64,000 nucleotides of DNA, taken from the NCBI GenBank assembly GCA_022787565.1, contig JALFVN010000073.1:24265-88264 (forward strand), read 5' to 3'. Positions 1 through 42,093 of this stretch are shown one piece after another. A program made the translations under genes and the position numbers. A model generated the notes under the pieces. That model did no database searches, had not been told where the DNA came from, and saw only the letters and a program-made list of their open reading frames with translations. The DNA is from Clostridiales bacterium (GTDB lineage Bacteria; Bacillota; Clostridia; Oscillospirales; Oscillospiraceae). How positions within the stretch are numbered: position 1 is the first letter of the stretch; each line of letters begins with the position of its first letter.

Positions 1-174
1 TTGCTGCAATGGATCGGCGCAAATCTTGGGACCATTCTCATCTGCCTTGTTTTACTTGCCATAGTTACCTTCATCATCCTCTACCTCGTCCGGCAGAAAA
101 AGCAGGGCAAGTCCTCCTGCGGCTGCAACTGTGCCCACTGCGCCATGCACGGTTCATGCCATAACATAAAATAA
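1..174 (+). CDS. FeoB-associated Cys-rich membrane protein (small; possibly 5'-partial at window edge)
   Basis: The in-frame read from nt 1 to TAA at 172-174 gives LLQWIGANLGTILICLVLLAIVTFIILYLVRQKKQGKSSCGCNCAHCAMHGSCHNIK. This is one TM helix plus a C-terminal Cys cluster, typical of the small FeoB-associated family. Confidence 0.7.
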   Translation: MLQWIGANLGTILICLVLLAIVTFIILYLVRQKKQGKSSCGCNCAHCAMHGSCHNIK

Positions 175-329
175 GGAAAAGGGAGAGATGCGAAAATGCC
201 GCGTCTCTCTGTTCAGAAAATAATTGGGCCGAAGATAGTCGGGACTGTCAAAACTTTGGGTTTGGCAGTCTCGACTATTTTATCAAGACGTGATATAATA
301 CACAAACTACTGCGAAAGAAGGAAAGAAG

Positions 330-2930
330 ATGAACGGTTCAGCGGATAGTCCGCCGAAAAAGCAGTTTTGCCTGGGCCTGATCGCCCATGTGGACGCGGG
401 GAAGACTACCTTGTCCGAGGCTATGCTGTACCTCTCCGGTAAGATCAAAAAGCTGGGCCGGGTGGACCACCGGGACAGCTTTCTGGACACCCACCGGCTG
501 GAACGGGAACGGGGAATCACCATCTTTTCAAAACAGGCCGTCATGCCTCTGGAAAACAGCACGGTATATTTGCTGGATACCCCCGGCCACGCGGACTTTT
601 CCGCCGAGGCGGAACGGACTTTGCAGATTTTGGACTACGCGGTGCTGGTCATCAGCGGGACCGATGGCGTTCAGGCCCATACGGAGACCCTGTGGCTTCT
701 GCTGGAGCGCTACCATGTGCCCTGCTTTCTTTTCGTGACAAAGATGGATCTGCCCGGTGCGGATGAAAAAAAGCTGATGGAACAGCTTCGCCGGGAGCTG
801 AGTGAGGGCTGTGTGGACTTCACCAACAGGGGAGAGGACTTCTTTGAAAAGCTGGCCCTCTGTGATGAGGCGGCCATGGAAAAATATCTTGATTCCGGCC
901 TCGGGGAGGACGATATCCCGGCCCTGATCCGCCAGCGGGCCCTGTTTCCCTGCTTTTTCGGCTCCGGGCTGAAAACGGAGGGGGTGGAGGAGCTTCTTGG
1001 CGCCATTGACCGCTATTGCCTCCCCGTGGAGGACAGCGGCGAATTTTCCGCCCGGGTGTTCAAGATTGCCAGGGACGCCCAGGGCAGCCGCATGACCTGG
1101 CTGAAGATCTGCGGCGGGGAACTGAAGGTCAGAACGCCCCTGCGCTATACCGACCAGAGCGGCGAGGAGCTGGAGGAAAAAATCAACCAGATCCGCCTGT
1201 ATTCCGGCAGCAAATTCGAGACTGCCGACACCGTACAGGCGGGGCAGGTCTGCGCTGTGCTGGGGCTCAGCGCCACGACTCCCGGCCAGGGTCTGGGCGC
1301 AGCGGATAAGGCGGAGGAGCCGGTGTTGGAGCCGGTTCTGAGCTACCGGATGATCCTCCCGGCCGGTACCGACCCGGCGGCTCTGCTGCCCAGACTGATG
1401 CAGCTGCAGGAGGAGGATCCCCAGCTCCATATCATGTGGAACGAGCGGACGCGGGATATCTCCGTGCAGCTCATGGGCAAGGTACAGACGGAGATTCTGA
1501 AAAGGCTCATTCAGGAGCGCTTCGACCTGGATGTAAGCTTTGACACGGGGCATATCATGTACCGGGAGACCATTGCGGACACAGTGGAGGGCGTGGGCCA
1601 TTTTGAGCCGCTGCGCCACTACGCCGAGGTGCATCTGCTGCTGGAACCCCTGCCCCGGGGCAGCGGACTGGTGCTGGAGAGCAGCTGCAGCGAGGATCAG
1701 CTGGACCGGAACTGGCAGCGGCTGATCCTGACCCATCTGGCGGAAAAAAAGCATCTGGGTGTGCTCACCGGCTCGCCGCTGACCGACGTGAAGATCACCC
1801 TGGCCGCGGGCAAAGCCCACCTTAAACACACCGAGGGGGGCGACTTCCGCCAGGCCACCTACCGGGCGGTGCGCCAGGGGCTGATGCAGGCGGAGAGCGT
1901 TCTGCTGGAGCCATACTACGCCTTTACCCTTACGGTGCCGCCGGAGCAGATCGGCAGGGCCATCAACGATCTTCGGGCCATGGACGCGGAGTTTTCCTCC
2001 CCGGAGGATGCAGGCGGCATGAGCCGGATCGAGGGCAGCGCCCCGGTTCGCAGCCTTGCCGGTTATATGAACGAGCTTGCGGCCTATTCCCACGGCCGTG
2101 GCCGCCTTTTCCTCCGCCCTGACGGGTACAGGCCCTGCAAAAACAGCGATAGCGTGATCAGAGAATACGGCTACGATGCGGAGAGCGACGCGGATAACCC
2201 GGCCGACTCGGTGTTCTGCGCCCACGGCGCGGGCTTCAATGTGAAGTGGAACCAGGTGGCTGACTACATGCACCTGGAAAGCTGTCTGAAAAGGGAAGCT
2301 GCCCCGGAGCCTGCCGCCCCGGTATTCCGCCGCAGTCTGGACATCGACGAGCGGGAGCTGGAGGCCATCATGGAGCGGGAGTTCGGCCCCATCCGGCGCC
2401 GGGAATACCGGGCCCCGGAGAGAAACGAGGCCCCGGCACCGCCGCCTGCGGAAACCAAAAAGGAATATATTCTTGTGGACGGATACAATGTGATCTTTGC
2501 CTGGGACTCTCTGAAGGCCCTGGCAAAGGAACGGCTGGACCTGGCCCGGGGACGACTGATGGACATGCTCTCCAACTACTGCGGATTTACCCGCGCAGAG
2601 CTGGTGCTGGTGTTCGACGGCTACCGCAGCCCGGGAAACCCCGGCTCCAGAACCGAGTATCACAATATCCATGTGGCCTATACCAAAGACGGGGAGACGG
2701 CTGACGCCTATATCGAGCGGCTGGCCAACGACATCGGCAAAAACTATTCCGTGCGGGTCATCACCAGCGACAATCTGATCCGCCTGTCCGCCCTGCGCTC
2801 CGGCGTGCTGCGCACCTCCTCCAAGGAGTTTGCGGGCGAGGTGGACTGGGTGCTGGAGCAGATCGAGGCAGTGCTGCGCCGGAGCAATCCGGACCCGCAC
2901 AAGACGAGGCTGAAGGATGGAAAACAATGA
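330..2930 (+). CDS. Translation-factor GTPase (EF-G/TetM-like) fused to a C-terminal YacP/Rae1-type NYN domain
   Basis: 866-aa ORF with a GAAGGAAAG RBS. GTPase motifs present: G1 AHVDAGKT, G2 RGITI, G3 DTPGH, G4 TKMD. The EF-G-like body is ~640 aa, followed by a Pro/Ala/Glu-rich linker. The last ~170 aa carry NYN signatures ILVDGYNVIFAW, LVFDGY and VITSDN. Confidence 0.8.
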   Translation: MNGSADSPPKKQFCLGLIAHVDAGKTTLSEAMLYLSGKIKKLGRVDHRDSFLDTHRLERERGITIFSKQAVMPLENSTVYLLDTPGHADFSAEAERTLQILDYAVLVISGTDGVQAHTETLWLLLERYHVPCFLFVTKMDLPGADEKKLMEQLRRELSEGCVDFTNRGEDFFEKLALCDEAAMEKYLDSGLGEDDIPALIRQRALFPCFFGSGLKTEGVEELLGAIDRYCLPVEDSGEFSARVFKIARDAQGSRMTWLKICGGELKVRTPLRYTDQSGEELEEKINQIRLYSGSKFETADTVQAGQVCAVLGLSATTPGQGLGAADKAEEPVLEPVLSYRMILPAGTDPAALLPRLMQLQEEDPQLHIMWNERTRDISVQLMGKVQTEILKRLIQERFDLDVSFDTGHIMYRETIADTVEGVGHFEPLRHYAEVHLLLEPLPRGSGLVLESSCSEDQLDRNWQRLILTHLAEKKHLGVLTGSPLTDVKITLAAGKAHLKHTEGGDFRQATYRAVRQGLMQAESVLLEPYYAFTLTVPPEQIGRAINDLRAMDAEFSSPEDAGGMSRIEGSAPVRSLAGYMNELAAYSHGRGRLFLRPDGYRPCKNSDSVIREYGYDAESDADNPADSVFCAHGAGFNVKWNQVADYMHLESCLKREAAPEPAAPVFRRSLDIDERELEAIMEREFGPIRRREYRAPERNEAPAPPPAETKKEYILVDGYNVIFAWDSLKALAKERLDLARGRLMDMLSNYCGFTRAELVLVFDGYRSPGNPGSRTEYHNIHVAYTKDGETADAYIERLANDIGKNYSVRVITSDNLIRLSALRSGVLRTSSKEFAGEVDWVLEQIEAVLRRSNPDPHKTRLKDGKQ

Positions 2931-3663
2931 ACTTCTGAAACGGGCGGAGGACCTCTGCACCCGCTGCGAGCGGACGGCCAGTCTGACCTCCACCGGCTTT
3001 CTCACCCCGGCGGAGCGTTACAGCCTGGAAAACTGGGCAAAGCGCCGGGCTGACTGCAATCTGGTGTTCAGCGGCGGTCGGGAGGAGTGCGAGCGCACAG
3101 TGGCCTTCTTCCTGCCCTACTATATGGAGAAGGAGTACTTCTCCCCGGAGGAATACATCCGGGCCATTGAACTGAAAGCCTTTTTCGGCGTCCCGGGCCA
3201 CCGGGACTATATGGGCGCCCTGCTGGGCATGGGCATCGGCCGGGAGTGGCTGGGGGATATCTGGGTCATGGAGGATAAAGCCTGTATCTTCTGCCTGCCC
3301 AGCGTCCTGCGTCACCTGCTCAGCATCGAGAAGGTGGGCAGGTACACGGTGAAAGCCAGGGAAATCACCCTGAATGAGGTACCGGCCCCGGAGCGAAAGG
3401 TGAAGCAAGTGAGCTTTTCCGTCATGAGTATGCGGCTGGACGCGGTGGCGGCGGGGATGTTCAACCTGTCCCGCACCGAGGCCGCAAAGCAGATAACTGC
3501 CGGGAACCTGAGCCTGAACTACAGCGTCACGGACAGGACCGACGCCCCGATCCGCGAGGGGGATATTCTCTCCCTTCGGGGCGCAGGCAAGGGCACCGTC
3601 ACCGGCACCGGCGGCACCTCCCGCAAAGGGCGGCTTTTTGTGTATGCGGAGATATACAAATGA
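2917..3663 (+). CDS. ylmH: YlmH-like RNA-binding protein with C-terminal S4 domain
   Basis: 248-aa ORF whose ATG overlaps the upstream gene by 14 nt. It has an S4-like C-terminal segment (RLDAVAAGMFNLSRTEAAKQITAGNLSLNY...GDILSLRGAGKG) and an N-terminal YlmH-like layout. Confidence 0.65.
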   Translation: MENNELLKRAEDLCTRCERTASLTSTGFLTPAERYSLENWAKRRADCNLVFSGGREECERTVAFFLPYYMEKEYFSPEEYIRAIELKAFFGVPGHRDYMGALLGMGIGREWLGDIWVMEDKACIFCLPSVLRHLLSIEKVGRYTVKAREITLNEVPAPERKVKQVSFSVMSMRLDAVAAGMFNLSRTEAAKQITAGNLSLNYSVTDRTDAPIREGDILSLRGAGKGTVTGTGGTSRKGRLFVYAEIYK

Positions 3664-5042: not shown

Positions 5043-6335
5043 ATGGAGGCAAGGCTTGGCGCAAGGAAATGGGCGGCGCTTATTCTCATCGGCCTGTTCG
5101 GCCAGTTTGCGTGGACCATTGAGAACATGTATTTCAATGTTTTTTTGTATAATACCATCTCCACAGACCCGGGCTATATCGCCTCCATGGTGGGCTGGTC
5201 TGCCGCCGCCGCCACGGTGACGACCCTGCTGATGGGCGCGCTGTCCGACCGGGTGGGAAAGCGGAAGGTATTTATCTCCGCAGGCTACCTTCTGTGGGGC
5301 CTGTCCACGGCGGCCTTCGGTTTCATCACCCCGGAAAACGCCGCACGGCTCTTTCCGGGGGCCAACGCTGCCGCTGCCGCCGCCACCATGGTGGTCATTC
5401 TGGACTGCGTGATGACCTTTTTCGGCAGCACCGCCAACGACGGGGCCTTCAACGCCTATGTCACCGACGTCACCAACGAGAAGAACCGGGGGCGTGCAGA
5501 GAGCGTTCTCGCCATTCTGCCTTTGATCTCCATGCTGATCATCTTCGGGTTGTTTGACGGACTGACCCAACAGGGCAGATGGAGGGAGTTTTTCGGCATC
5601 TTCGGCGTCTCCGTTTCGGCGGTGGGCCTGATCTCCGCCTTTCTGGTGAGGGATGAGCCGGGGCTGAAGCCCCGCCGGGACAGCTATTTCAAAAACCTGC
5701 TCTACGGACTGCGCCCCGCCGTTGCCCGGAAAAACCCGGAGCTCTACCTGTCCTTTGCCGCCTTCTGCCTGTTTTCCGTGGCGGTGCAGGTGTTCTTCCC
5801 CTATCTGATCATCTACATTCAAAACTATCTGGGCATAACGGACTACGCCATCATTCTGGGCGTGGTGCTCATTGCCGCCTCCGTGGTCAGCGTGGTCTCC
5901 GGACGATTTATCGACAGAATGGGCAAGCTCCGCTTCACCCTCCCCGCTGCCCTTGTCATGCTTGCGGGGCTGGTAGGGATGTACTTTGTGCGAAAGGGCG
6001 CGGGCGTCATGCTCGCCGGCTCCGTAATGATGAGCGGCTATATGATGATGACCGCCGCCCTCAGCGCCAATATCCGGGACTGGACGCCGGAAGGGAAGGT
6101 GGGCCACTTCCAGGGCATCCGCATGATCTTCGCGGTGCTGCTCCCCATGATCATTGGCCCCTCCATCGGCGCCGCCGTCATCCGGGGCAGCAACAGCACC
6201 TATATTGAGCTGGGCCAGGTCAAATCTGTGCCCACCCCCGGCATCTATCTGGCAGCGGCAGCGGTGCTGCTGCTGACGGCGCTGCCCGTTCTTCTTCTGC
6301 GCCGCCGAGAGAGGAGAAACAAAAATGAGAGCTGA
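5043..6335 (+). CDS. MFS transporter
   Basis: 430-aa polytopic membrane ORF with MFS motif-A-like GALSDRVGKRK and an AGGGAGGA RBS. Confidence 0.8.
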   Translation: MEARLGARKWAALILIGLFGQFAWTIENMYFNVFLYNTISTDPGYIASMVGWSAAAATVTTLLMGALSDRVGKRKVFISAGYLLWGLSTAAFGFITPENAARLFPGANAAAAAATMVVILDCVMTFFGSTANDGAFNAYVTDVTNEKNRGRAESVLAILPLISMLIIFGLFDGLTQQGRWREFFGIFGVSVSAVGLISAFLVRDEPGLKPRRDSYFKNLLYGLRPAVARKNPELYLSFAAFCLFSVAVQVFFPYLIIYIQNYLGITDYAIILGVVLIAASVVSVVSGRFIDRMGKLRFTLPAALVMLAGLVGMYFVRKGAGVMLAGSVMMSGYMMMTAALSANIRDWTPEGKVGHFQGIRMIFAVLLPMIIGPSIGAAVIRGSNSTYIELGQVKSVPTPGIYLAAAAVLLLTALPVLLLRRRERRNKNES

Positions 6336-6927
6336 AATGCCCATCGTCAAAAGCCGGGAGGAACTGGACAAGGCCCCGATGATCTCCATTGAAAACTACC
6401 TGTGGCTGGAGGGCTATGCGCCGGAGGTCACGGTCCGGGGCGTGTATGTGGAAAAACAAGGATTTCTGATCGAGATGAAATGTCTTGAAAAATCTCCCAA
6501 GGCGGTGTATACTGTGCAGGATTCGCCTGTCTGCCGGGACAGCTGCATGGAGTTTTTTGTGAACTTCTCGCCGGAGACAGATGACCGATACATCAATTTT
6601 GAGGCCAACGCCAAGGGCGCGCTCCACTGCAAGATCGGTCCCGGGCGGGGAAACAGGATCCCCCTGGCCTCCCTCCCCATCCCCCAGCCGGAGCTCTCTG
6701 CTTTTGTGGAGGAGGACAGCTGGCGCACGGTGCTTTTTGTGCCTCTGGGCTGCATCCAGGCGCTCTACGGGCGGGGCGAATATCATAGCGGCGACCGGTT
6801 CCGCGCCAATTTCTACAAATGCGGCGACGAGACGGAGACGCCCCATTACGGCGCGTGGAGTTATATCGACCTGCCCAGCCCCGATTTCCACAGGCCGGAA
6901 TTTTTCGGAGAGATAGAATTAACATGA
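6325..6927 (+). CDS. Carbohydrate-binding family 9-like (DOMON-like) cytoplasmic protein
   Basis: 200-aa ORF overlapping the MFS stop. Segments YLWLEGYAPE...CLEKSPKAVYT...DSCMEFFVNFSPE...YINFEANAKGAL resemble the ~200-aa CBM9-like family. Confidence 0.55.
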   Translation: MRAEMPIVKSREELDKAPMISIENYLWLEGYAPEVTVRGVYVEKQGFLIEMKCLEKSPKAVYTVQDSPVCRDSCMEFFVNFSPETDDRYINFEANAKGALHCKIGPGRGNRIPLASLPIPQPELSAFVEEDSWRTVLFVPLGCIQALYGRGEYHSGDRFRANFYKCGDETETPHYGAWSYIDLPSPDFHRPEFFGEIELT

Positions 6928-7988
6928 AAGAAGCGATCTACCACTTTCCCGTTGAGGGAAGCCCGCTGAGCTGCGAGCAGATCAAAAGCGGACACATCAA
7001 CGAGACTTATCTGATCACCACCGACACAGGAGCCCGGTATATCCTCCAGTGGATCAACCGCTATGTATTCCCCAACGTGGAAGCCATCATGAACAATATG
7101 TCCGCCATCAGCCAGTTCCTGCGGAAAAAAGAGCATGGCAGAATGTGCATGATCAGCTACATAGACACCCTTGACGGACACAGTTATTATGACGACGGAA
7201 AAGGCGGCTGCTGGCGCATCTACCGCTTTGTGGACAACAGCATCTGCCTGCAGAGAGCTGAGAGGCCCGAGGATTTTTATGAGAGTGCCGTAGCCTTCGG
7301 CCGTTTTCAGAACGCCCTGAACGATTTTCCGGCGGAAAAGCTGGAGGAGACCATTGCCCATTTTCACGACACCGTTGACCGCTACCGCCAGCTGCGGGAG
7401 GCCATTGCCGCCGATGCCTGCGGCCGCCTGAGCGAGGTACAGCCCGAGGTGGATTTCCTGATGGAGCGGGAGGAAAAGGGCTGCCGGCTCCACCATATGC
7501 GGGAGAGCGGTCAGCTCCCCACAAGAGTGACCCATAACGACACCAAGATCAATAACGTCCTTCTGGACGCGGACAGCCGCAAGGCGCTGTGCGTGATCGA
7601 CCTGGATACCGTTATGCCCGGCCTGTCTGTGTTTGATTTCGGCGACGCCATCCGTTTCGGCGCCTCCACTGCGGCGGAGGATGAGCCGGATTTGCGCAAG
7701 GTCTCTCTGGATCTGGAGCTGTTCCGGGTCTTTACCCGGGGCTTTGCGGAAGCCTGCCCCGCGCTGACGGCGGAGGAGATCAACGCTTTGCAGCTGGGGG
7801 CCTATACCATGACCCTGGAATGCGGCTTGCGCTTTCTCACCGACTATTTAAACGGTGATAAATACTTCTCCATCGACCGGGAAAAGCACAACCTGGACCG
7901 GGCCCGGACCCAGTTCAAACTGGTACAGGACATGGAACAAAAATGGGACGAAATGGCCCGCATCGTCGAAGAAGAAACAAAAAAGTGA
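6924..7988 (+). CDS. Aminoglycoside-phosphotransferase-fold sugar kinase, N-acetylhexosamine 1-kinase-like
   Basis: ATGA overlap with the upstream stop; the ORF-track start at 6819 is rejected as an extension. It has the kinase catalytic loop THNDTKINNVLLD and the IDLDT metal-binding motif. Size is ~355 aa. Confidence 0.6.
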   Translation: MKEAIYHFPVEGSPLSCEQIKSGHINETYLITTDTGARYILQWINRYVFPNVEAIMNNMSAISQFLRKKEHGRMCMISYIDTLDGHSYYDDGKGGCWRIYRFVDNSICLQRAERPEDFYESAVAFGRFQNALNDFPAEKLEETIAHFHDTVDRYRQLREAIAADACGRLSEVQPEVDFLMEREEKGCRLHHMRESGQLPTRVTHNDTKINNVLLDADSRKALCVIDLDTVMPGLSVFDFGDAIRFGASTAAEDEPDLRKVSLDLELFRVFTRGFAEACPALTAEEINALQLGAYTMTLECGLRFLTDYLNGDKYFSIDREKHNLDRARTQFKLVQDMEQKWDEMARIVEEETKK

Positions 7989-8049: not shown

Positions 8050-9072
8050 TTATTTTCCCAGCCACACCTTGTCTGCGGTAATGTCCTTCAGACTGGCGGC
8101 GCCGCACATGGTCATGGTGGACTTCAGCTCGCCCACGATCTTGTCCATGTACACCTTGAAGCCCTCTTCTCCGCCGCCGTAGATCATGTTCAGGATGGGG
8201 CGGCCGATGAGCACCGCGTCAGCGCCCAGAGCCAGCGCGCGGAACACGTCCACGCCGGAACGGATGCCGCCGTCCACCAGAATGACGGTCTTGCCCTTGA
8301 CGGCCTTGACGATGGCGGGGAGCACTTCCGCAGTGGAGGGAGTGCTGCCCTGGACCCGGCCGCCGTGGTTGGAGACCACAATGGCGTCTGCGCCGGCCTC
8401 AACAGCCTTCAGGGCTCCTGCCGGAGTCATGATGCCTTTGACAATGAAGGGCATTTTGGCGTAATTGATAATCTCTTTCATTTCCTCCACGGACTTGCTG
8501 CCCGCGTTGGGGTTCATGGCCTTCAGGAAAGGCAGGCCGGCGCCGTCCACGTCCATGGCCGCGGCGAAAATGTTATTCTCATTCAGAATATCCAGCTTCT
8601 CAAACACAAACTCCTTGTTCCAGGGCTTGATGGTGGGGCAGCCGATGCCCTCGTATTTGACCATGTCCGCCGCGGCGCTTTTCATGATGTCCGGGTCCAC
8701 ACCGTCGCCGGTGAGGGCCATAACGCCGTATTCATAGGCGGCCTTGATGAGAACGGCGTTATACTGCTGGTCCTTGTATTTGGGGCCGTAGTGCATATCC
8801 ACCGCGCCCAGCGGGGCGGCGAAGATAGGGGCGCTGAACTTCCTGCCGAACATCTCGAAGGAGACGTCGGGATCGGCATTGGGACAGAGGGTATCCATGT
8901 TGACACAGATCTCCTGCCACTTGTCAAAGTTCCTTGCCGCCACGTTGCCGGGGTATTTGCAGCCGGGACCGGGCATGGCGTTTCCGCAGGCGCGTCCGTT
9001 GCAGACAGGGCAGGCCTTGCAGTAAGGGCCGATGCACTCTCTGGCTGCGGCGAGTATCTCATTGTAATTCAT
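8050..9072 (-). CDS. FMN-dependent alpha-hydroxy-acid-oxidizing/dehydrogenase family protein with N-terminal Cys cluster
   Basis: 340 aa with a TIM-barrel FMN signature (VSNHGGR, VDGGIRSG, GADAVLIGRP). The N-terminus has CIGPYCKACPVCNGRAC (CX4CX2CX2CX4C). Confidence 0.75.
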   Translation of the reverse strand: MNYNEILAAARECIGPYCKACPVCNGRACGNAMPGPGCKYPGNVAARNFDKWQEICVNMDTLCPNADPDVSFEMFGRKFSAPIFAAPLGAVDMHYGPKYKDQQYNAVLIKAAYEYGVMALTGDGVDPDIMKSAAADMVKYEGIGCPTIKPWNKEFVFEKLDILNENNIFAAAMDVDGAGLPFLKAMNPNAGSKSVEEMKEIINYAKMPFIVKGIMTPAGALKAVEAGADAIVVSNHGGRVQGSTPSTAEVLPAIVKAVKGKTVILVDGGIRSGVDVFRALALGADAVLIGRPILNMIYGGGEEGFKVYMDKIVGELKSTMTMCGAASLKDITADKVWLGK

Positions 9073-9150
9073 AGTCTATTCTCCTTTATGTGTTTATAAT
9101 AATGCCATTGGCTTCATTATCAACCAAAAGCCGACGCTTGTCAACCCAAA

Positions 9151-10077
9151 TCAAAGCCCCGTCAGGTCAAAGTCCGGGATCATCTCGCCGGTGGCGGCCT
9201 CCGGCTCCTGCCAGTAGCCGTATTCCAGGCCCACCTTCTGCATATAGGCGCAGAGACGATCATTCATCTCCGGGCTGACCCGCTCACTCAGCTCCGGGAA
9301 GCGCTCCAGACCGGGCATGGGGGTATACTGGCACATGAGGGAGAAGAGCACGCTGCCTTTGGGAAATTCCTCCGCCGCGAAATCGATGGCGTCCATGGCG
9401 TTTAAGTCCTGGCCGGGCAAGATCAGGTGGCGGATCAGTACCCCGGAGCGCAGCAGCCCCTCCTCATCCACCACAAAGGGCCCGGTCTGGCGGTACATCT
9501 CTTTGATGGCGGCACGGGCGATTTCCGGGTAGTCCTCCGCGGCGGAATAGCGCCTGGCCGGGTCTCGCTTGGCATATTTGAAGTCCGGCATGTAGATCTG
9601 CACCAGACCCTCCAGCATTTTCAGGCTCTCCACGCTCTCATAGCCGGAGCTGTTCCACACCACCGGAATACCCAGATCAAGTCCGCCGAGAGCCTCCGCA
9701 ATGGGCCGGATAAAGTGGCTGGGGGTCACAAGGTTGATGTTGTGCACGCCCTGATCCCGCAGCCGCAGCAGGATATCCCGCAGCTCCGGCACGGTGACGG
9801 CTTTGCCGCCCCGGCCCCGGCTGATCTCCCGGTTCTGGCAGAACACGCATTTCAGATTGCAGCCGGTGAAAAACACTGTGCCCGAGCCCCGGATGCCGCT
9901 GATGCAGGGCTCCTCGCCGTAGTGGGGCGCGGCCCGGGCCACCACCGGAAGGGCCGGGCTCATACACACGCCGCCCCCCTTGTTTTCGCCCCTTTTCGCG
10001 CCGCAGCGGCGGGGACAATCTCTGCAAATATACTCCATGACCCAATCCTCATACTGATAAAAGTTTGACATATGCAA
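9151..10077 (-). CDS. Radical SAM protein, PflX-like (activase-like)
   Basis: 308 aa with the CNLKCVFCQN (CX3CX2C) radical SAM motif and an N-terminal extra Cys motif CRDCPRRC, typical of the PflX/COG1313-type family. Confidence 0.75.
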   Translation of the reverse strand: MHMSNFYQYEDWVMEYICRDCPRRCGAKRGENKGGGVCMSPALPVVARAAPHYGEEPCISGIRGSGTVFFTGCNLKCVFCQNREISRGRGGKAVTVPELRDILLRLRDQGVHNINLVTPSHFIRPIAEALGGLDLGIPVVWNSSGYESVESLKMLEGLVQIYMPDFKYAKRDPARRYSAAEDYPEIARAAIKEMYRQTGPFVVDEEGLLRSGVLIRHLILPGQDLNAMDAIDFAAEEFPKGSVLFSLMCQYTPMPGLERFPELSERVSPEMNDRLCAYMQKVGLEYGYWQEPEAATGEMIPDFDLTGL

Positions 10078-10257
10078 AATGACAAGAAAAGCCGTTCCTG
10101 CATGTGCAATTATAGCCCTGTTTTGTTAAATATGCAAGAATTCGCAAAAATCGAAAAAAAGTACATGATTTTTCTGATTTTTGTGCTAAAATGTTTTCGA
10201 ACCTGAGAAAGTAATTACAAAACAGAGCCTTGAACGAAAGATCCGGGAGGGAAGGAA

Positions 10258-10746
10258 ATGCTTGATATTGTTCTGGTAGAGCCTGAGATACCCCACAACA
10301 CCGGAGCCATTGCCCGCACCTGCGCGGTGACGGGAGCAAGGCTGCATCTGATAAAGCCCCTGGGTTTTGACATCTCCGATAAAGCTGTCAAACGCTGCGG
10401 GCTTGATTACTGGTATCTGGTGGATATCACCGTTTATGAAAACCTGGATGAGTACTTTGCAAAAAATGGTGATAATAATTTATATCTCGCCACCACCAAG
10501 GCGCCGAGAGCCTACCATCAGGCGGACATGAGCGGCGATGTGACGCTGATGTTCGGCAAGGAGACGGCGGGCCTGCCCCAGTGGCTGCGGGAGAAATACA
10601 GGGAGCGGTGCATCCGCATCCCCATGATCAGTGAGGCCCGGAGCTTGAACCTTTCAAACTCCGTTGCCGTGTTGGCATACGAGGCGCTGCGTCAGCAGGG
10701 CTTTCCGGGACTTCTGGAAACCGGAAGTATGTCAATGGATAGATAA
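10258..10746 (+). CDS. trmL: tRNA (cytidine/uridine-2'-O)-methyltransferase TrmL (SpoU family)
   Basis: 162 aa beginning MLDIVLVEPEIPHNTGAIARTC, with a SPOUT C-terminal knot SLNLSNSVAV. GGGAGGGAAGGA RBS. Confidence 0.85.
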   Translation: MLDIVLVEPEIPHNTGAIARTCAVTGARLHLIKPLGFDISDKAVKRCGLDYWYLVDITVYENLDEYFAKNGDNNLYLATTKAPRAYHQADMSGDVTLMFGKETAGLPQWLREKYRERCIRIPMISEARSLNLSNSVAVLAYEALRQQGFPGLLETGSMSMDR

Positions 10747-10766
10747 TAAATTGAGGAGGATAAACC

Positions 10767-11957
10767 ATGAACTACAACAAGAAAACCGTTTACGATGTGG
10801 ACGTAAAGGGCAAGAAGGTTCTGCTCCGCTGCGACTTTAACGTTCCCCAGAACAAAGAGACCGGCGAGATCACCAGCGACAAGCGTATCGTTGCCGCCAT
10901 CCCCACCATCAAATATCTGCTGGATAACGGCGCTGCCGTTATCGCCTGCTCCCACCTGGGCAAGCCCAAGGGCGAGTGGAAGACCAAGCTGACTCTGGCT
11001 CCTGTGGCAGAGAGACTGGCCCAGCTGCTGGGCCAGGATGTGATCTTCGCCAAGGACATCATCGGCGAGGACGCCCAGGCCAAGGCCGCCGCACTCCAGC
11101 CCGGCCAGATCCTTCTTCTGGAGAACCTGCGCTTCGACATCCGCGAGGAGAAGAACGGCGCCGACTTTGCCAAGGCCCTGGCCGACATGGCCGAGATCTT
11201 CGTGTCCGACGCTTTCGGCACCGTGCACAGAGCCCACGCCTCCACTGCCGGTGTGGCAGCTTACCTGCCCGCATACTCCGGCCTGCTGGTAGATAAAGAG
11301 CTGTCCATCATGGGCAAGGCGCTGGACGATCCCAAGCGCCCCTTCGTGGCCGTTCTGGGCGGCGCAAAGGTCTCCGACAAGATCAACGTGATCAACAACC
11401 TGCTGGAGAAGGCCGACACCATCATCATCGGCGGCGGCATGGCCTACACCTTCAAGAAGGCCCAGGGCTATGAGATCGGCACCTCCCTGCTGGAAGCCGA
11501 CCGCATCGACTACGCCAACGACATGATCGCCAAGGCCGCTGCCAAGGGCGTAAAATTCCTCCTGCCTGTTGACAACTACTGCGCAGCCGAATTCTCTGCC
11601 GACGCGGAGCCCGTTCTGGTTGAGGGCAATATCCCCGAGAACCTGATGGGCATGGACATCGGCCCCAAGACCGTGGCGCTCTTCACCGAGGCCGTCAAGG
11701 GCGCAGGCACCATCGTCTGGAACGGACCCATGGGCGTTTTCGAGTTTGACAAGTTTGCCGGCGGCACCAAGGCCATGGCCAAGGCACTGGCCGAGTCCGG
11801 CGCTGTGACCATCGTGGGCGGCGGTGACTCTGCGGCTGCTGTTGAAAAGCTGGGCTTTGCCGACAAGATCACCCACATTTCCACCGGCGGCGGCGCATCC
11901 CTGGAGTTCCTTGAGGGCAAGGAGCTGCCCGGCGTGGCCTGCCTGCAGGATAAGTAA
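10767..11957 (+). CDS. pgk: Phosphoglycerate kinase
   Basis: 396 aa with the canonical [15 protein letters not shown] and GGGDSAAA motifs. Confidence 0.97.
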
Positions 11958-23580: not shown

Positions 23581-24146
23581 AGAATTAGTCTCCCTTAAGT
23601 TTATTTGCTCTGTGTTTGTAGATTTTAGACTATAAACAGCATTTTATCAAGGCGGAAAAAACGAGTTTTAGGGCATAATGCCCAAGTTCGTATGTTTCAC
23701 TGAAATGCATGAGCGGAGAGCCATGTTCTCCGGCAAATTACACAAAAAATATCCCAATAAATGTCAGAATCTAAACGAATACATGACAGTCTGCGGGTAA
23801 ATGTATTGACATTGTTTGGAGAAAATAACTAAAATCAGAACTTTTTAACCCCAATTAAAAGAATAAAATCTATCAAACACACAAAGAAAACCGTGAAAAG
23901 AAAAACTTACAGATCTGCTGCTGATCCGACGAAGACTGGGAAAATACACAAAAATATCCCATTCTTTTCGGACGACAGGGTGGAATTCACTATACAGCCG
24001 AAAAATGTTTCACTTGAAAGAGAAGATTAGCCTGGTCAGAGGCATAATACATTTGAACAGATGCTTTGTTGACACGACTTTGCTCCCGTGATAAACTTCA
24101 AAAAAGAAATCATGCGGAAAACATTGGAGTAAAGGGAGGACAAGCG

Positions 24147-25025
24147 GTGAAAGGGATCATTCTTGCAGGAGGCAGCGGCAAGCGGCTGTATCCACTGACA
24201 AAGGTCACATCCAAGCAGCTTCTTCCCGTCTATGACAAGCCCATGATTTTTTACCCGCTTTCTACCCTGATGCTGGCGGGCATCCGGGATATTCTCATTA
24301 TCTCCACACCCGCCGATCTGCCCAATTTTGAGCGTCTGCTGGGTGACGGCAGCCAGTACGGCATCCGGCTGAGCTACAAGGTGCAGCCCTCTCCCGACGG
24401 GCTGGCCCAGGCCTTTATCCTGGGCGAGGAGTTCATCGGTGACGACCGGGCCGCTATGATCCTGGGCGATAATATTTTCTACGGCGCCGGTCTGGGCGAG
24501 CATCTGCGCCGGGCGGCAAAGCAGGAAGAGGGCGCCACGGTGTTCGGCTACTATGTGGAGGATCCGGAGCGCTTCGGCGTGGTGGAGTTCGACAAAAACG
24601 GCAAGGCCGTTTCTATCGAGGAAAAACCCAAAAAGCCCAAGTCCAATTACGCCGTTACCGGCCTGTATTTTTATGACAAAAAAGTCTGCAAACGGGCCAA
24701 ATCCCTGAAACCCTCCGCCAGAGGAGAGCTGGAAATCACAGACCTGAACCGGCTCTATCTGGAAGAGGACAGGCTGAACGTGATCACTCTGGGCCGGGGC
24801 TATGCCTGGCTGGACACCGGCACCATGGACTCTCTGGCTCAGGCCACGGAGTTCGTGCGGGTGGTGGAGTCACGGGAGGGCATTCAGATCGCCGCGCTGG
24901 AGGAGATCGCTTACCACAGCGGCTGGATCAGCCGGGCGGAGCTTCTCCAAGCAGCGGAGAATTACGGTCAGTCCCCCTATGGAAAGCACCTGCTGAACGT
25001 GGCCGCGGGGAAATACATGTATTGA
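24147..25025 (+). CDS. rfbA: Glucose-1-phosphate thymidylyltransferase
   Basis: GTG start after an AAGGGAGGA RBS. Begins [18 protein letters not shown]; also [11 protein letters not shown]. Confidence 0.93.
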
Positions 25026-27513: not shown

Positions 27514-29268
27514 TTATTGTTTTCCGGGCCGTTTTGACAGAAGGAATCTCAGCTTTGCGGGGAGATAAAGCAGTATGCTTCCCAGCCTGTACCGGCGAGA
27601 GGCAAGGGTCTGGTCCAGCATGGTACGCAGGCGTTCATTTTCGCAGGCAAGCTCGCGGGAGCGAAGATCGGACTGCTCCAGCAGTGCTTCCAGGCGGGCG
27701 CTTTCTTCACGCAGTTCACAGCAGCGCTGCTCAGATTGCTCCAGAGCAGCTTTCAGACGGCTGTTTTCCCGGGCCTGTTCACGATTTTTTTCCTCTGCCT
27801 GTGAAAGTGCGCTTTCACAGTCGGCCCTGGCCTGCCAGAATTTACTGTGCATCTGCCGGAAAGCAATTCCGGCTGTTTCCGAAAAAACGGAAAATTCCTC
27901 CCAGCTGATGGATAAGGCGCTTTCCTCAGCGACATCAGAGGAGAGAACGGCGTGAAAAATGTCTGTCCAGCATTTCTCCAAGTCGATCTGCGCCAAAAAA
28001 GCCGCCTCTTGTCGGGCCGCACTGCCCATACGGCAGCGAAGCCGGTCCTGGTTGAGCACGTCCGCAAGAGCGTCTGCCGCGGCATCAAAATTTTTCCAGG
28101 GCACCTGAATAACGGCTTCAGACTGCCTGAGCACGGTGGCATAGGGCATCTCATAGCAGACAACAGGCACACCGAAGGCAAGACTTTCGCCGAGAACCAT
28201 GGAATAGCCCTCAAAGTTTGAAGTCTGTAAAAGAACATCGGCCTGATAAAAGAGCCGGCTGACCTCGCTGCTGTATCCGGGAAAGGAGATGTGGCCGGAA
28301 AGTCCCAGTTCATCTGCGCGGGCTTTGAAGCGGGATATAAGCTCGGCCGGAGCGTCGCCGGCCATGGTCAGCTGCACATCGGGGACTTTTGGCAGCAGGC
28401 GGTAGAGAATATCCAGAACGTCCGCCGGGTTCTTCTGGGAAGAATCGAAACGGCCCAGCCACAAAACCCGGTGACCATCCAGCGGCGGTGCGGCACAGTC
28501 TGAAACGGAGAAGGTCGGCGGATTATGAACAGAAAAGACCCGCTTGTTGACCAGTGACCAGTAGAGCCTGTCCGTTTCGGAAAGGGTGACAATGGCGTCA
28601 GCCTGCCGGTAAATGCTGTGACTTTTCCAGACCGCGTCGGACATGCAGACGGTCTGGGCAATGAAAACATTGTGGCTGTGGGCGATAAAAGCCGCACCTG
28701 TGCTTTTTATTGCGCACATATCCCAAAAACTCTGGTAAAACAGCCATCCATGATAAATGACGGCATCGATATCATAGCTTTCCATTATGCGGCAGAATTG
28801 GGAAAAGCGCTCCCTGCTGCCGGAGCCGTCTATGGGAGCGGAGCCGCTGAGAACCGCTCTGATCACCTCGCGCTCAAGATAATAGTCTTCCTGCCGGGGA
28901 GCTTCATCGGTGATCAGGACCACGCGATAACCTGCTTTGCACAAAATATTGCTCAGCAGGCATACGACCCTTTCCGCGCCGCCGTTGTATGCCCTGGTGT
29001 AATACATGCCGACTGTGCGCACAGCCTTTTTTGTGCAGGGGAAAAGCCCGGCAATATCCAGCACGCCGGCAATATCGTAAGGATCGGTCCAGTATTTTTC
29101 TGCCAGCGGCGGGATAATATCGCGCAGAGAACAGCGCTGCAGAATAAGCCGGCTTCCGTGACGCCGGAAGTCTTCCGGCAGAGTGAGAAGAAAAGCAAAG
29201 GCTGAGACCGGATCCTCTTCAGCCTTTTTCAAAAGCAGTTGGTCGTATTCGAGATAAGAAGGGCTCAT
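27514..29268 (-). CDS. Glycosyltransferase family 4-like protein with C-terminal coiled-coil extension
   Basis: 584 aa. The GT-B core has GGAERVV and ...SNFEGYSMVLGESLAFGVPVV. The last ~120 aa are heptad-like (LSQAEEKNREQARENSRLKAALEQSEQRCCELREESARLEALLEQSDLRSRELACENERLRTML). Confidence 0.65.
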   Translation of the reverse strand: MSPSYLEYDQLLLKKAEEDPVSAFAFLLTLPEDFRRHGSRLILQRCSLRDIIPPLAEKYWTDPYDIAGVLDIAGLFPCTKKAVRTVGMYYTRAYNGGAERVVCLLSNILCKAGYRVVLITDEAPRQEDYYLEREVIRAVLSGSAPIDGSGSRERFSQFCRIMESYDIDAVIYHGWLFYQSFWDMCAIKSTGAAFIAHSHNVFIAQTVCMSDAVWKSHSIYRQADAIVTLSETDRLYWSLVNKRVFSVHNPPTFSVSDCAAPPLDGHRVLWLGRFDSSQKNPADVLDILYRLLPKVPDVQLTMAGDAPAELISRFKARADELGLSGHISFPGYSSEVSRLFYQADVLLQTSNFEGYSMVLGESLAFGVPVVCYEMPYATVLRQSEAVIQVPWKNFDAAADALADVLNQDRLRCRMGSAARQEAAFLAQIDLEKCWTDIFHAVLSSDVAEESALSISWEEFSVFSETAGIAFRQMHSKFWQARADCESALSQAEEKNREQARENSRLKAALEQSEQRCCELREESARLEALLEQSDLRSRELACENERLRTMLDQTLASRRYRLGSILLYLPAKLRFLLSKRPGKQ

Positions 29269-29393
29269 TTTTATTTTCCTTTCTTACACTACATCCTTCT
29301 TTGCTTAAAATTATGACATTACTATAAACCCTTGTCAAGGAAATACAGACCGAATGCGTCTGCGGAGAAGGAAATACCGGGCTTAATTGAATG

Positions 29394-29422
29394 TTGCAAA
29401 CATAAGGAAATAAAGGTATAAT
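29394..29422 (+). promoter_or_regulatory. Sigma-A-type promoter candidate for the Dlt-like cassette
   Basis: TTGCAA, then 17 nt, then TATAAT. It lies ~180 nt upstream of the ATG at 29601. Confidence 0.45.
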
Positions 29423-29600
29423 AAAAACATTAAGAATCTTAATTTTGGAAATATTTTGCTTTTTGGGACTGCTTTGTTTTTTGCCCGGCCGTTTCGTCCG
29501 GCAAAGGAGAGGCGGCTTTCCGCACGGGGCAAAGGGAACAGGGGAGAAAACTGCCGGTCCGCCGGGGCTGCGCAGAATGATTTGAAGCTGAGGGGAAAAG

Positions 29601-31229
29601 ATGGTCAGGCGCATTGTAAAAATTGTTGCTTTTTTTGTGATCGGGATCATGCTGCTTTTTGCTGTACAGGGTATTTTTGCTCCTAAATGGTATAGTGATG
29701 GAGCAACAAACCGGGTTTTGTCCGGTTTTTTTGCATTGGAAAACGATACGGCAGAAGTGCTTTTCCTCGGAACAAGTCATATGGGAAGAGGTGTATCCCC
29801 AATGAAAATATATGAGGATACAGGGATTGTTTCGTATAATCTCGCCACATCCGGACAGCCGTTGGAATGCAGCTACTTCCTCTTAAAAGAAGCCTTTAAA
29901 ACCCAGAGTCCAAAGGTTGTTTTCCTTGACGCAGGCAGAATCCTGAACGGAGAGGGAAATAACAATAATTCATATTGGCGGTATATTATTGATAATTTCC
30001 CGCGGGACGAGGTGTTTTGGGAGCTTGTTGAGGCATACAGTGAACTTCCGGACAGCGACGGCTCTTTGGCCGCATGGTTTCCTCTGATAAAATATCACTC
30101 AAGATGGGATCAACTGACGGAGGAATCCTTTGAATCAAGGTTTACAGGAGGGTACTACTCCGCCGGACAATATATCATGTCATATAGTTCTCCCTGTGCA
30201 CCTTCACAGCAAGTATTCGATGAGAAAGTGGCTCAGATTTCAGAAGAGTCAGTGATAACGATCCGTGCCGCAGAAGAAGGCGTACTGTCGGCTAAGGCAG
30301 TGAAAAAGGATGGCTACGCCCCTGAATTGACAGGGCATTGTATGGAATATGTTCTGAAAATAAAAAGCCTTTGCGAGGAAAATGGTGCGGAGCTTGTCAT
30401 CGTAAAGATCCCTTCTTATACATATTCCGGGTTAATTATGTCCGATAGCAACGCTGGAGACTACTCCTGGAACATCCTGAAATCCGATTTGCTGAGAGCC
30501 TTCACTGATGAGAACGATATACGTTTTATCGATATGATGTACGATGTCAATATCGTGGATAGCCTTTTCGATACGCATGACAGCGGGCACCTTAATGTGA
30601 ATGGAGCGGAAAAAGTTTCTGCTTTTATTGAAAAAATTCTCAGACAATATCATATTTCGCCGAATACAAACGGGAAATATGATGAAAATTTAGAGAAATA
30701 TCGTTTGGTTAGCACGGTTGCAAAACTGCAAAGCGAGAGAGATTTTCATCAGTATTTGGAAACACTGTCAGAAAACGCCGCAAATTGGCTGATTCTTATT
30801 TCCGCCTGTGACGAGTATACATACAGCCTCGATTCTCAGGATTTTGATAGTATGGAAAAGCTCGGACTTCACCTGGTACAGGAAGGGAATTTCAGAGATG
30901 CGTATGTCGCGGTGATCAATTCGGGAAACGTATTATATGAGGCAGTCTCTGAAGGACCGATAAGTTATGAAACGGTTTTGTGCAATCAGAAAATAAAGCT
31001 TTACAGTGGCGGAGGAAATAATTTTTCTACCTGCAACATTCTGCTTGAGGGCAAAGACTATTCCAACGGATGCAGAGGGCTGAATTTTGTGGTAATTGAT
31101 AAGGAGACCAATTTAGTCATTGACGCGGCTTCTTTTGACACGTTTTTGGAAGGTAAAACATTTACCAGAGCGGTAAATGAAACAAATACCCGTCTCAGAG
31201 CTTATGAGAGCGCAATCTGCTTCCAATAG
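29601..31229 (+). CDS. Membrane-anchored SGNH/DltD-like protein with extra C-terminal domain
   Basis: 542 aa: an N-terminal TM helix, an SGNH block-I-like LFLGTSHMGRG and a block-V-like DSGHLNVNGAEK. The gene is visibly AT-richer than its flanks. Confidence 0.55.
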   Translation: MVRRIVKIVAFFVIGIMLLFAVQGIFAPKWYSDGATNRVLSGFFALENDTAEVLFLGTSHMGRGVSPMKIYEDTGIVSYNLATSGQPLECSYFLLKEAFKTQSPKVVFLDAGRILNGEGNNNNSYWRYIIDNFPRDEVFWELVEAYSELPDSDGSLAAWFPLIKYHSRWDQLTEESFESRFTGGYYSAGQYIMSYSSPCAPSQQVFDEKVAQISEESVITIRAAEEGVLSAKAVKKDGYAPELTGHCMEYVLKIKSLCEENGAELVIVKIPSYTYSGLIMSDSNAGDYSWNILKSDLLRAFTDENDIRFIDMMYDVNIVDSLFDTHDSGHLNVNGAEKVSAFIEKILRQYHISPNTNGKYDENLEKYRLVSTVAKLQSERDFHQYLETLSENAANWLILISACDEYTYSLDSQDFDSMEKLGLHLVQEGNFRDAYVAVINSGNVLYEAVSEGPISYETVLCNQKIKLYSGGGNNFSTCNILLEGKDYSNGCRGLNFVVIDKETNLVIDAASFDTFLEGKTFTRAVNETNTRLRAYESAICFQ

Positions 31230-31288
31230 AGAGCGTCAGATTTTATCACGGAATTTACCTATTATTGTTTCGCTGGGGAAATTAGAAT

Positions 31289-41049: not shown

Positions 41050-41058
41050 ATCTGCACC

Positions 41059-42093
41059 TCAACTTCTCTTCAGCTTGCCGCGAACTTTGCGCGCAAAAAC
41101 AAGCAGCTTCGTGAAAAAGGTATTGAAAAACCGCACGTTGATGTACCTGAGCCGCCGGGAAAAATGTATGTAGGGGAAAACATCCACCATCTGGTAAAGG
41201 TCGGGGGCGGTGTTTTTCAGATAGGTGTCAAAGTCTTTGATCGTCCTGTAAGCAAGCCGGCGGTCCTTCAGCTTGTTGCACACCAGATCCATGTGGGTGT
41301 AGAACATGAAATAGATGAGCAGCGACATGTACTCTTTTACGTTTTTGCTGACCTTCTCCCTGAATGACACATAATATTCAATAAGGAAGCTGAGTACATT
41401 CTGGTGATTGGGGAGGTTGCGCAGAAGATTTTCCTGGCTCATACTCTGATTCGGCCTGCCCATAAAGTAGCGGTAGACATGATAATCCAGGAAATGCACG
41501 GTTTTCAGATAAGGGATAGGGTAAATGTTATACTGCATATCCACATAAAAGCTTTTTTCAAAAAGCTTCAGGCCGGATTTATGCAGGATCTCCAGCTTGT
41601 ATGTTGAGGAGGCCATAGTGTAGTAAGTCTTGGACTCGTCAAACACAAGCTCGTCCACAGAATAGACTTGATCGTGGGTAAAGAATTCGTAATTATAGGG
41701 GACTACCGTGCCGTTGTATACATATTCCTGCGTATACGGGGTTACGATCAGGTCCTCGTCACATGCGGAAAGCGCTTTCAGATATTTAATAAATTCCGGC
41801 GTGTCGAACCAGTCGTCGCTATCCAGAACACGAAAATATTTTCCTGTGGCTGCCTTCAGCGCGGCATTGATGGTAGAGCCGTGTCCGCCGTTTTCCTTGT
41901 CGATAAAAACAATGTTTTCCGGGAAGCGGGCCTGATATTCCCTGATGATCTCAGGCGAGCTGTCCTTACTGCCGTCATTGACGATGATAAGCTCGATATA
42001 AGGCAGTGCTTCCTGCACAAGGACAGAATCAAGACATCGTCTGATATAATCCTCCGTGTTATACACCGGAATGGCAATAGAAAGTGTTTTCAT
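41059..42093 (-). CDS. Glycosyltransferase family 2
   Basis: 344 aa with LSIAIPVYNTEDYIRRCLDSV, IVNDGSKD and the LDSDDW (DXD) motif. Confidence 0.85.
   Translation of the reverse strand: MKTLSIAIPVYNTEDYIRRCLDSVLVQEALPYIELIIVNDGSKDSSPEIIREYQARFPENIVFIDKENGGHGSTINAALKAATGKYFRVLDSDDWFDTPEFIKYLKALSACDEDLIVTPYTQEYVYNGTVVPYNYEFFTHDQVYSVDELVFDESKTYYTMASSTYKLEILHKSGLKLFEKSFYVDMQYNIYPIPYLKTVHFLDYHVYRYFMGRPNQSMSQENLLRNLPNHQNVLSFLIEYYVSFREKVSKNVKEYMSLLIYFMFYTHMDLVCNKLKDRRLAYRTIKDFDTYLKNTAPDLYQMVDVFPYIHFSRRLRYINVRFFNTFFTKLLVFARKVRGKLKRS

Follow-up and report, generated by a model that had tools for sequence, protein, structure and literature searches.

The gene at positions 330 to 2930 (plus strand) of the DNA analysed here, a stretch of 64,000 nucleotides from a Clostridiales bacterium of the Oscillospiraceae (GenBank assembly GCA_022787565.1, contig JALFVN010000073.1, positions 24,265 to 88,264 of the forward strand; hereafter the window), was found to encode an 866-residue fusion protein. 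A translation-factor GTPase, a C-terminal mini-domain, a linker and a Rae1-type NYN nuclease follow one another in a single uninterrupted open reading frame (ORF), which ends with the stop codon TGA at 2928-2930. We propose, with moderate confidence, that this fusion could serve translation surveillance as a Rae1 nuclease that depends on GTP and is tethered to the ribosome. The architecture itself is already known: fusions of a "Tet" or "TetM-like" protein with NYN_YacP are on record for Clostridia (Atkinson 2015, PMC4342817; Matelska et al. 2017, PMC5499597). They are common in gut Clostridia, and the window protein is a member of exactly that group. New here are the assignment of the GTPase to a non-Tet subfamily with its own domain IV tip and mini-domain, the finding of unfused members, the variable length of the tether, and the coupling to a YlmH-like gene in one lineage.

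An earlier note on this DNA had described one uninterrupted ORF of 866 residues joining a complete EF-G-like GTPase, through a Pro/Ala/Glu-rich linker, to a C-terminal domain with YacP/Rae1 hallmarks. All parts of this description were borne out by the ORF at 330..2930, its translation and the profile searches given below. The integrity of the frame was examined in 80 related genomic loci, which were taken from species-representative genomes of Oscillospiraceae and Lachnospiraceae and form the basis of all counts of frame, synteny and adjacency in this text. The GTPase and NYN parts share one stop-to-stop frame in 80 of the 80 loci, and no stop or frameshift at the linker, the test set in the earlier note, was seen in any of them. 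Mis-assembly or frameshift at the linker is ruled out by this single frame, and for the same reason the fusion is not an assembly artefact.

The GTPase body is complete, with domains G, II, III, IV and V in order, and five Pfam models match it above their curated cut-offs: GTP_EFTU (residues 15-229, 163.9 bits), EF-G_D2 (238-317, 29.3 bits), EFG_III (334-404, 31.0 bits), EFG_IV (408-521, 66.7 bits) and EFG_C (524-606, 62.6 bits). On the plus strand of the window, these correspond to 372..1016 for the G domain, 1041..1541 for domains II and III together, 1551..1892 for domain IV and 1899..2147 for domain V. The nucleotide-binding motifs are intact as the note had listed them, namely G1 AHVDAGKT (residues 19-26), G2 RGITI (61-65), G3 DTPGH (83-87) with the catalytic His87, and G4 TKMD (137-140). 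Residue conservation was computed, here and below, over 150 diverse representatives of clusters formed at 50% identity. K25, T64, D83, H87, K138 and D140 are each at least 97% conserved, the catalytic His87 reaching 99%. Ribosome-stimulated GTP hydrolysis at the factor-binding site is the activity predicted by homology for this half of the protein.

Judged by sequence, the GTPase is a separate subfamily equidistant from Tet(M) and EF-G, and is neither one. When aligned with authentic sequences of Tet(M), Tet(O) and EF-G from annotated records, the body showed 30% identity both to Tet(M) and to EF-G. The best NCBIfam match was tet_protect (NF012153), with 404.5 bits below a cut-off of 775. The models of Tet(M), Tet(M)/Tet(W) and Tet(Q) gave 222-260 bits against cut-offs of 1100-1425, and the EF-G equivalog TIGR00484 gave 275.2 bits against 659.4, all below. 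By Foldseek, the top matches of the structure model were EF-G (E 1e-53), and the model has the EF-G fold. Searches by fold and against solved structures yielded nothing closer than EF-G, EF-2 or Tet, the fold searches giving EF-G and EF-2 alone. The G' insert is short, like that of Tet(M).

Two elements mark this subfamily, an invariant His- and acid-rich tip of domain IV and a folded C-terminal mini-domain of about 50 residues. The highest conservation in the entire fusion protein was observed in domain IV. Its tip carries the family-specific motifs GHFEPLRHYAEVH (residues 423-435) and AHLKHTEGGDFRQAT (residues 496-510, nucleotides 1815-1859), within which H424, E426, H430, H500 and D505 are about 100% conserved. 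Loop III of the fusion reads KAHLKH and then TEGGDFRQAT, in a tip that is essentially invariant across the family. The counterpart of this loop is LYYSPVSTPADF in Tet(M) and SYHDVDSNEMAF in EF-G.

The mini-domain (residues 602-650, 2133..2279, plus strand) follows the pattern PC(H/K)N...YD...D..N..SVFCxHGxG..V.W..V..YMH, and no Pfam model matched this segment. In the AlphaFold2 model built from a diverse alignment (mean predicted local distance difference test, pLDDT, 90.6; predicted template modelling score 0.72), it folds as a helix (606-613), a beta-hairpin (627-638) and a second helix (640-646), with pLDDT of 90-95. The same mini-domain ends an unfused 644-residue protein encoded on Ligilactobacillus salivarius megaplasmids, which is 50% identical to the fusion GTPase. 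Since it is present in this unfused relative, the mini-domain is a feature of the GTPase subfamily rather than part of the linker. Its residues C603, C630, H632 and H648 are 82-95% conserved and might form a CCHH metal-binding site, a speculative candidate.

The C-terminal nuclease domain occupies residues 714-858 (2469..2903, plus strand) and was modelled with pLDDT of 88-96. The NYN hallmarks LVDGYN (715-720), VFDGY (761-765) and ITSDN (811-815) were all found in the translation. The profile search proposed in the earlier note gave a match to Pfam NYN_YacP (PF05991) of 138.0 bits (E 3.8e-40, cut-off 24.6), spanning model positions 1-146 of 166. The domain aligns over the whole nuclease core with Bacillus subtilis Rae1 (PDB 5MQ8, residues 3-143; E 2.7e-19), to which it is about 36% identical. 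By this alignment D717, D763, D792 and D814 are the equivalents of Rae1 D7, D53, D81 and D104. The acidic catalytic residues are thus retained, and the four are conserved in 97%, 100%, 96% and 97% of the representatives, respectively. Activity of Rae1 needs D7 and D81, the catalytic mutant being D7N D81N (PMC10351889). With the G motifs conserved at 97% or more and the NYN aspartates at 96-100%, both halves of the fusion are under purifying selection, and translation-dependent mRNA cleavage is the activity predicted for the NYN domain.

Between the two halves lies the linker (residues 651-712, 2280..2465, plus strand), which is mostly predicted to be disordered. Counted from the translation, 65% of its residues are Pro, Ala, Glu or Arg. 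In the AlphaFold2 model its pLDDT falls below 50 at residues 664-673 and 691-703. The two low-confidence segments flank a conserved helix, ERELEAIMEREF (residues 674-685, nucleotides 2349-2384, plus strand), recognised from both conservation and the model, and this helix is restricted to fused members. Linker length varies from 50 to 165 residues among 75 full-length fused representatives. A first structure model, made from a shallow alignment, gave the NYN domain and the mini-domain only poorly (pLDDT 71), and was superseded by the model described above.

To delimit the family, 1.84 billion representative proteins were searched with the subfamily-specific segment of residues 405-655, and at a cut of E <= 1e-30 a total of 533 clusters at 50% identity was obtained. 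The breakdown into fused and unfused members was made on the best 150 of the 533. Among these, the NYN domain is present in 104 clusters (75 of them full length, with 803-993 residues), and 29 stop directly after the mini-domain (20 full length, with 636-708 residues); the remainder are fragments. Fused proteins are therefore the majority, 104 of 133 classifiable representatives, and about one in five is unfused. The survey of fused versus split architecture that the earlier note had suggested thus gave a twofold answer, in that the fusion is intact in all the related loci and unfused GTPases of the same kind do exist. A neighbour-joining tree of fused and unfused members, crude and without support values and hence a hint only, placed one unfused block beside the outgroups and a few other unfused members scattered within the fused radiation. 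This picture would fit an ancestor that lacked the nuclease, followed by one main event in which it was gained. An identical protein was not found on record. The closest relatives, at 91-92% identity, are from Candidatus Limivicinus and from Clostridia metagenome-assembled genomes, including Oscillospiraceae, and the distribution across the two large families Oscillospiraceae and Lachnospiraceae looks vertical.

Some observations were made on individual members. The unfused relative of L. salivarius UCC118 (plasmid pMP118, locus L081, 5399-7917) adjoins a divergent rpsN, the gene for ribosomal protein S14, and a small "putative metal homeostasis protein" stands beside the GTPase in the same locus. 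These neighbours hint at a link with metal limitation or alternative ribosomal proteins.

The site of Rae1 action has been revised by its discoverers. The model of cleavage in the ribosomal A site, on which the earlier note had relied, was withdrawn in 2025, and cleavage is now placed at the tail of stalled ribosomes (PMC12407103). A 2026 preprint describes Rae1 on collided ribosomes, where it makes substrates for transfer-messenger RNA, tmRNA (PMC13622287). All Rae1 substrates that have been characterised are mRNAs (PMC12407103, PMC10351889, PMC13622287). No structure of Rae1 on the ribosome was found in the literature examined.

On this background the fusion could work as follows. The GTPase body in its GTP form would bind the ribosome at its factor-binding site and extend domain IV into a vacant or blocked A site. 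Docking at the factor-binding site with domain IV directed into the A site is the mode of all EF-G-family factors, and in all ribosome complexes of EF-G or Tet(M) domain IV itself fills the A site. Once docked, the body would hold the nuclease within tether range of RNA on the same or on a neighbouring collided ribosome, and the nuclease might reach the mRNA on its entry side or its exit side, or act at the interface of a disome. The tethered nuclease would then cut the mRNA, as B. subtilis Rae1 does at stalled or collided ribosomes, GTP hydrolysis would release and reset the factor, and tmRNA or ribosome quality control would handle the truncated message. A tether is favoured over rigid A-site delivery, because domain IV fills the A site and the linker is flexible and variable in length. 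The concept of a ribosome-directed nuclease under GTPase control, put forward in the earlier note, accordingly survives as the most sensible reading of a protein with the right domains and intact active sites, but its delivery to the A site does not.

Several points weigh against our proposal. What the proposal says on binding to the ribosome, on the RNA substrate, on the trigger and on the rescue pathway that would follow is drawn from homology with the characterised relatives, and no experimental study of any family member was found in the literature. The unfused members share the domain IV tip and the mini-domain, so that the GTPase has a function of its own, which may not concern stalled ribosomes. 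With domain IV expected in the A site, the place taken by the nuclease is left undefined, and the structure models did not reliably locate the NYN domain with respect to the body. Finally, the family is without a conserved operon partner that would point to a pathway. Outside the close clade none was detected, either by an unbiased clustering of the three ORFs on each side of the fusion or by inspection of the same-strand downstream genes.

A more specific form of the proposal may be offered tentatively, as a possibility that we regard as rather doubtful. The fusion might be an enzyme of no-go decay in gut Clostridia, gated by GTP and contained in a single polypeptide, which recognises stalled or collided ribosomes through the domain IV tip and the mini-domain and cuts the mRNA by its tethered Rae1. 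By Rosetta-stone logic, unfused GTPases such as that of Ligilactobacillus might then recruit a standalone Rae1 in trans, and in Limivicinus co-translation with YlmH might link cleavage to clearance of the large subunit. If this were true, the unfused GTPase would be the missing ribosome-recruitment partner of Rae1.

Among the other explanations, we first consider that the nuclease targets rRNA or tRNA, and that the protein inactivates, dismantles or matures ribosomes, for instance in starvation or sporulation. By analogy with the C-terminal extension of Tet(M), the tether would start near the decoding centre and helix 44 of 16S rRNA, and one fusion copy, in Monoglobus, adjoins spore-coat genes. 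NYN_YacP has also been linked to rRNA and tRNA processing in early comparative work, through its operon with mrnC and rlmB (PMC5499597). On the other side, the substrates established for Rae1 are mRNAs without exception, as cited above, and no conserved neighbourhood of ribosome biogenesis or sporulation was found in the related loci. We consider this explanation unlikely.

The next explanation is the one favoured in the earlier note, that the GTPase places the nuclease inside the A site, where it would cleave the codon located there, and that the fusion forms a dedicated module with its YlmH-like partner. The domain composition fits such a module, and an older docking model of Rae1 in the A site is cited in the literature (PMC10351889). 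The withdrawal of that model, the occupation of the A site by domain IV and a linker that is variable in length and predicted to be disordered are all against it. For the remaining part of the claim, the dedicated partnership, we examined the neighbouring gene and its distribution.

The YlmH-like gene (2917..3663, plus strand) encodes 248 residues with an N-terminal region, an RRM-like YlmH_RBD and a C-terminal S4-type domain. It starts with ATG at 2917, preceded by GAGG 8 nucleotides upstream, and overlaps the end of the fusion ORF by 14 nucleotides (2917..2930), as the earlier note had observed. The YlmH-like nature of the product was supported by a match to YlmH_RBD (PF17774) of 33.6 bits above a cut-off of 23 and by alignment on the scale of the full length, in which residues 23-242 align with B. 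subtilis YlmH (PDB 8S1P) at E 6.7e-23. The Pfam S4 model gave 17.4 bits, below its cut-off of 22.8. The S4 region nevertheless aligns with YlmH through residue 242, and some close relatives of the neighbour do score for PF01479. The presence of the YlmH-like gene in relatives was supported by independent gene calls, and the paralogue scan of the 64-kb window revealed no second YlmH-like, NYN or related GTPase gene.

In the related loci, the YlmH-like gene adjoins the fusion in 24 of 80, and all 24 belong to the closest clade, in which the fusions share at least about 61% identity with that of the window. Of these 24 loci, 21 have an overlap of 14 nucleotides and two more an overlap of 11 nucleotides. 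In locus L064, a 906-residue gene on the opposite strand (8617-11337, minus strand) with a Pro/Thr/Ala-rich repeat splits the pair of fusion and YlmH-like gene; this is the sole split found. No YlmH-like gene was found within 6 kb in the other loci, about 55. The closest clade shares the entire downstream block of YlmH-like gene, PepT, MFS and APH kinase, with differing genes upstream. In other clades the same-strand downstream genes code for signal peptidase II, S41 peptidase, an ABC-class ATPase, DUF1643, a DtxR-type repressor, aldose epimerase or cysteine synthase. Some of these overlap the fusion as well: the gene for signal peptidase II overlaps the fusion stop by 4 nucleotides (ATGA) in Oscillibacter and Dysosmobacter (L038, L041 at 8658-9086, L042, L045, L052, L053 and L055), and the S41 peptidase gene does likewise in L043.

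Short overlaps also occur elsewhere in the window, where the MFS gene (5043-6335) overlaps the CBM9-like gene (6325-6927) by 11 nucleotides and the latter overlaps the APH-type kinase gene (ATG at 6924) by 4 nucleotides. Overlapping stop and start codons, seen here at 5043-7988, are a general habit of this genome. In the Limivicinus-like lineage the YlmH-like gene is probably co-transcribed and translationally coupled with the fusion, which fits a role in translation rescue. Its pairing with the fusion is lineage-local and no general property of the family. The case for a dedicated two-gene module is weak, because the adjacency is limited to one syntenic clade and overlaps are common in the window; with unrelated genes downstream of the fusion in the other clades, this part of the earlier claim was not upheld. 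In spite of the overlap conserved within the closest clade, we regard A-site delivery within a dedicated module as highly improbable.

A ribosomal protection protein against tetracyclines or another drug of the decoding site, with the nuclease as a second resistance mechanism, was suggested by Atkinson 2015 (PMC4342817). This view may draw on the length of the body and its short G' insert, both Tet(M)-like, on tet_protect as the best NCBIfam match, and on the fact that NCBI labels some members as TetM/TetW/TetO/TetS family. Against it, the match to tet_protect is far below the family cut-off, and the body is as close to EF-G as to Tet(M). Tet(M) depends above all on loop III of domain IV, which displaces tetracycline (PMC4750697), and the fusion differs from Tet(M) at all positions of L505-V510 and at the next four residues. 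The C-terminal helix of Tet(M) is replaced by the different mini-domain. Unlike tet(M), the loci showed no leader peptide, transposon or conjugative context, and the distribution across two large families looks vertical. That the fusion confers drug protection is thus very unlikely. The members named by NCBI as TetM/TetW/TetO/TetS family include Agathobacter rectalis L083 (5983-8784), L. salivarius L081 (5983-7917) and protein P0391. These Tet-named members, fused and unfused, reach about half the family cut-off and carry a wholly different drug-displacing loop.

Alternatively, the fusion might merely secure co-expression of two independent halves, the GTPase having no targeting role. Unfused GTPases of the same subfamily exist, and the standalone Rae1 of B. 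subtilis functions with no partner of this kind. Against this, fused proteins are the majority of the classifiable representatives, the fusion persists across sequences diverged to 40-50% identity, a conserved linker helix is specific to the fused form, and both halves are ribosome-associated proteins; we attach little probability to independence of the halves. A toxin or anti-phage abortive-infection effector that shuts down translation is hardly credible, since the general use of NYN and PIN nucleases as toxin domains and the position of one fusion copy beside a BrnT/CopG toxin-antitoxin pair are outweighed by the lack of a match to the PADLOC defence-system models, the housekeeping neighbours, the absence of a conserved antitoxin-like partner and the broad, apparently vertical distribution.

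The region upstream of the fusion gene was also inspected. A purine-rich ribosome-binding site, GAAGGAAAG, lies 5' of the ATG at 330. A promoter-like site was detected at 271..299 (plus strand), 30 nucleotides 5' of the start codon, with TCGACT, a 17-nucleotide spacer, TATAAT and a TG extension. This assignment is by consensus match alone; 5.2 kb of sequence held two such sites, where chance would give 1.5. Further upstream, the tail of a small Cys-rich membrane ORF, ending in SSCGCNCAHCAMHGSCHNIK*, occupies 1-174 (plus strand), and in close relatives a candidate FeoB-like ORF precedes it. Between this Cys-rich membrane gene and the promoter-like site of the fusion there is an 11-codon ORF, MRKCRVSLFRK* (188-223, plus strand), with a strong Shine-Dalgarno-like sequence, GGGAGAG; it may be a chance occurrence.

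The immediate neighbours of the fusion gene are thus the Cys-rich membrane ORF upstream and the YlmH-like, PepT and MFS genes downstream. The wider context in the window is chromosomal housekeeping, with genes for MFS, CBM9-like, APH-type kinase, radical SAM, SpoU methylase, triosephosphate isomerase, phosphoglycerate mutase and H+-pyrophosphatase. No genes of the ylm/cell-division cluster were recognised among the annotated flanking genes and a ten-gene sample of the window, and no Rfam family, riboswitch or leader RNA, reached its gathering score on either strand of the 64 kb. Lower G+C content (46-50%, against 55-60% in the rest) was noted at 28000-32000 and 40000-44000. These stretches lie near genes for an RmlA-like nucleotidyltransferase (24057-25025) and a family-2 glycosyltransferase (41059-42141, minus strand), and are probably part of a locus for surface polysaccharide, which may have come in by horizontal transfer.

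The family described here, which comprises more than 500 clusters at 50% identity, is a large unstudied subfamily of translational GTPases, abundant in the human and animal gut. The Tet labels carried by some members are likely false resistance calls, because the family cut-off is missed and the drug-displacing loop differs, and resistome surveys of gut metagenomes may miscount them. Read as a ribosome-tethered Rae1, the fusion is a natural experiment on that nuclease, in which an intact Rae1 domain is tied to a protein with a predictable docking site on the ribosome. The predicted docking site of the GTPase limits where the fused Rae1 can act, at a time when the site of Rae1 action is under revision by its discoverers, and the fusion offers a ready construct for cryo-electron microscopy and cleavage mapping.

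The fusion may finally be compared with known systems. The group recorded by Atkinson and by Matelska et al. is the same in architecture, a single polypeptide of Tet-like GTPase and NYN_YacP, and in taxa, the Clostridia. Those studies gave the architecture alone ("ten species of clostridiales") and took the GTPase as a Tet protein, whereas 533 clusters of a non-Tet subfamily were found here. Both papers predate or coincide with the first description of Rae1 as an mRNA nuclease, and neither uses that function (PMC4342817, PMC5499597). Full-text searches retrieved no later paper discussing the fusion, its function or a YlmH link, although a mention in Leroy 2017 (EMBO J) or Condon 2018 (RNA Biol) is possible.

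Tet(M) and Tet(O) (PDB 3J9Y, 4V6V) share with the fusion GTPase the five-domain EF-G-like body, a similar length, the short G' insert, intact G motifs and a C-terminal extension beyond domain V. They differ in loop III, LYYSPVSTPA in Tet(M) and KAHLKHTEGG in the fusion: Tet(M) L505-Y506-Y507-S508-P509-V510 aligns with fusion K495-A496-H497-L498-K499-H500, of equal length and with no residue in common. The C-terminal helix of Tet(M) has given way to the other mini-domain, and the fusion is chromosomal, shows no leader peptide or mobile element, and has a nuclease. With EF-G and EF-G2 the fusion has the fold and the order of domains in common, and its H497 aligns with the conserved His of the EF-G tip. 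In contrast, EF-G has a loop I insert SGGRGQY and a full G' subdomain, both lacking from the fusion, and a different tip loop, YHDVDS; the fusion in turn has the extra C-terminal mini-domain and the nuclease.

Rae1/YacP of B. subtilis is of the same NYN_YacP fold and sequence family as the nuclease half, with equivalents of D7, D53, D81 and D104 kept, and likely shares its substrate, which would be mRNA on stalled or collided ribosomes. It is, however, a standalone protein of about 170 residues encoded in the operon cysS-mrnC-rlmB-yacP, whereas here it is the C-terminal module of an 866-residue GTPase in an unrelated context. Rae1 is without a GTP-dependent factor body, and in the fusion that body would supply recruitment to the ribosome. 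In B. subtilis, YlmH is an S4-domain factor that serves ribosome quality control, with a role in RqcH-dependent alanine tailing. The neighbour of the fusion resembles it in the YlmH_RBD and in an S4-type C-terminus with the RLD motif, although the S4 score falls short of the Pfam cut-off. YlmH sits in the ylm/dcw cluster, of which no other gene was recognised around the neighbour of the fusion among the genes annotated.

By analogy only, the proposed action can be likened to that of SmrB in E. coli and Cue2 and NONU-1 in eukaryotes, in which a nuclease brought to a stalled or collided ribosome cuts the mRNA, and to no-go decay by Hbs1-Dom34, in which a translational GTPase recognises the stalled ribosome through the A site. 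Those systems have an SMR fold in place of NYN, and their recruitment domains and GTPase reside on separate proteins, while in the clostridial fusion the GTPase and the nuclease would act from one polypeptide.

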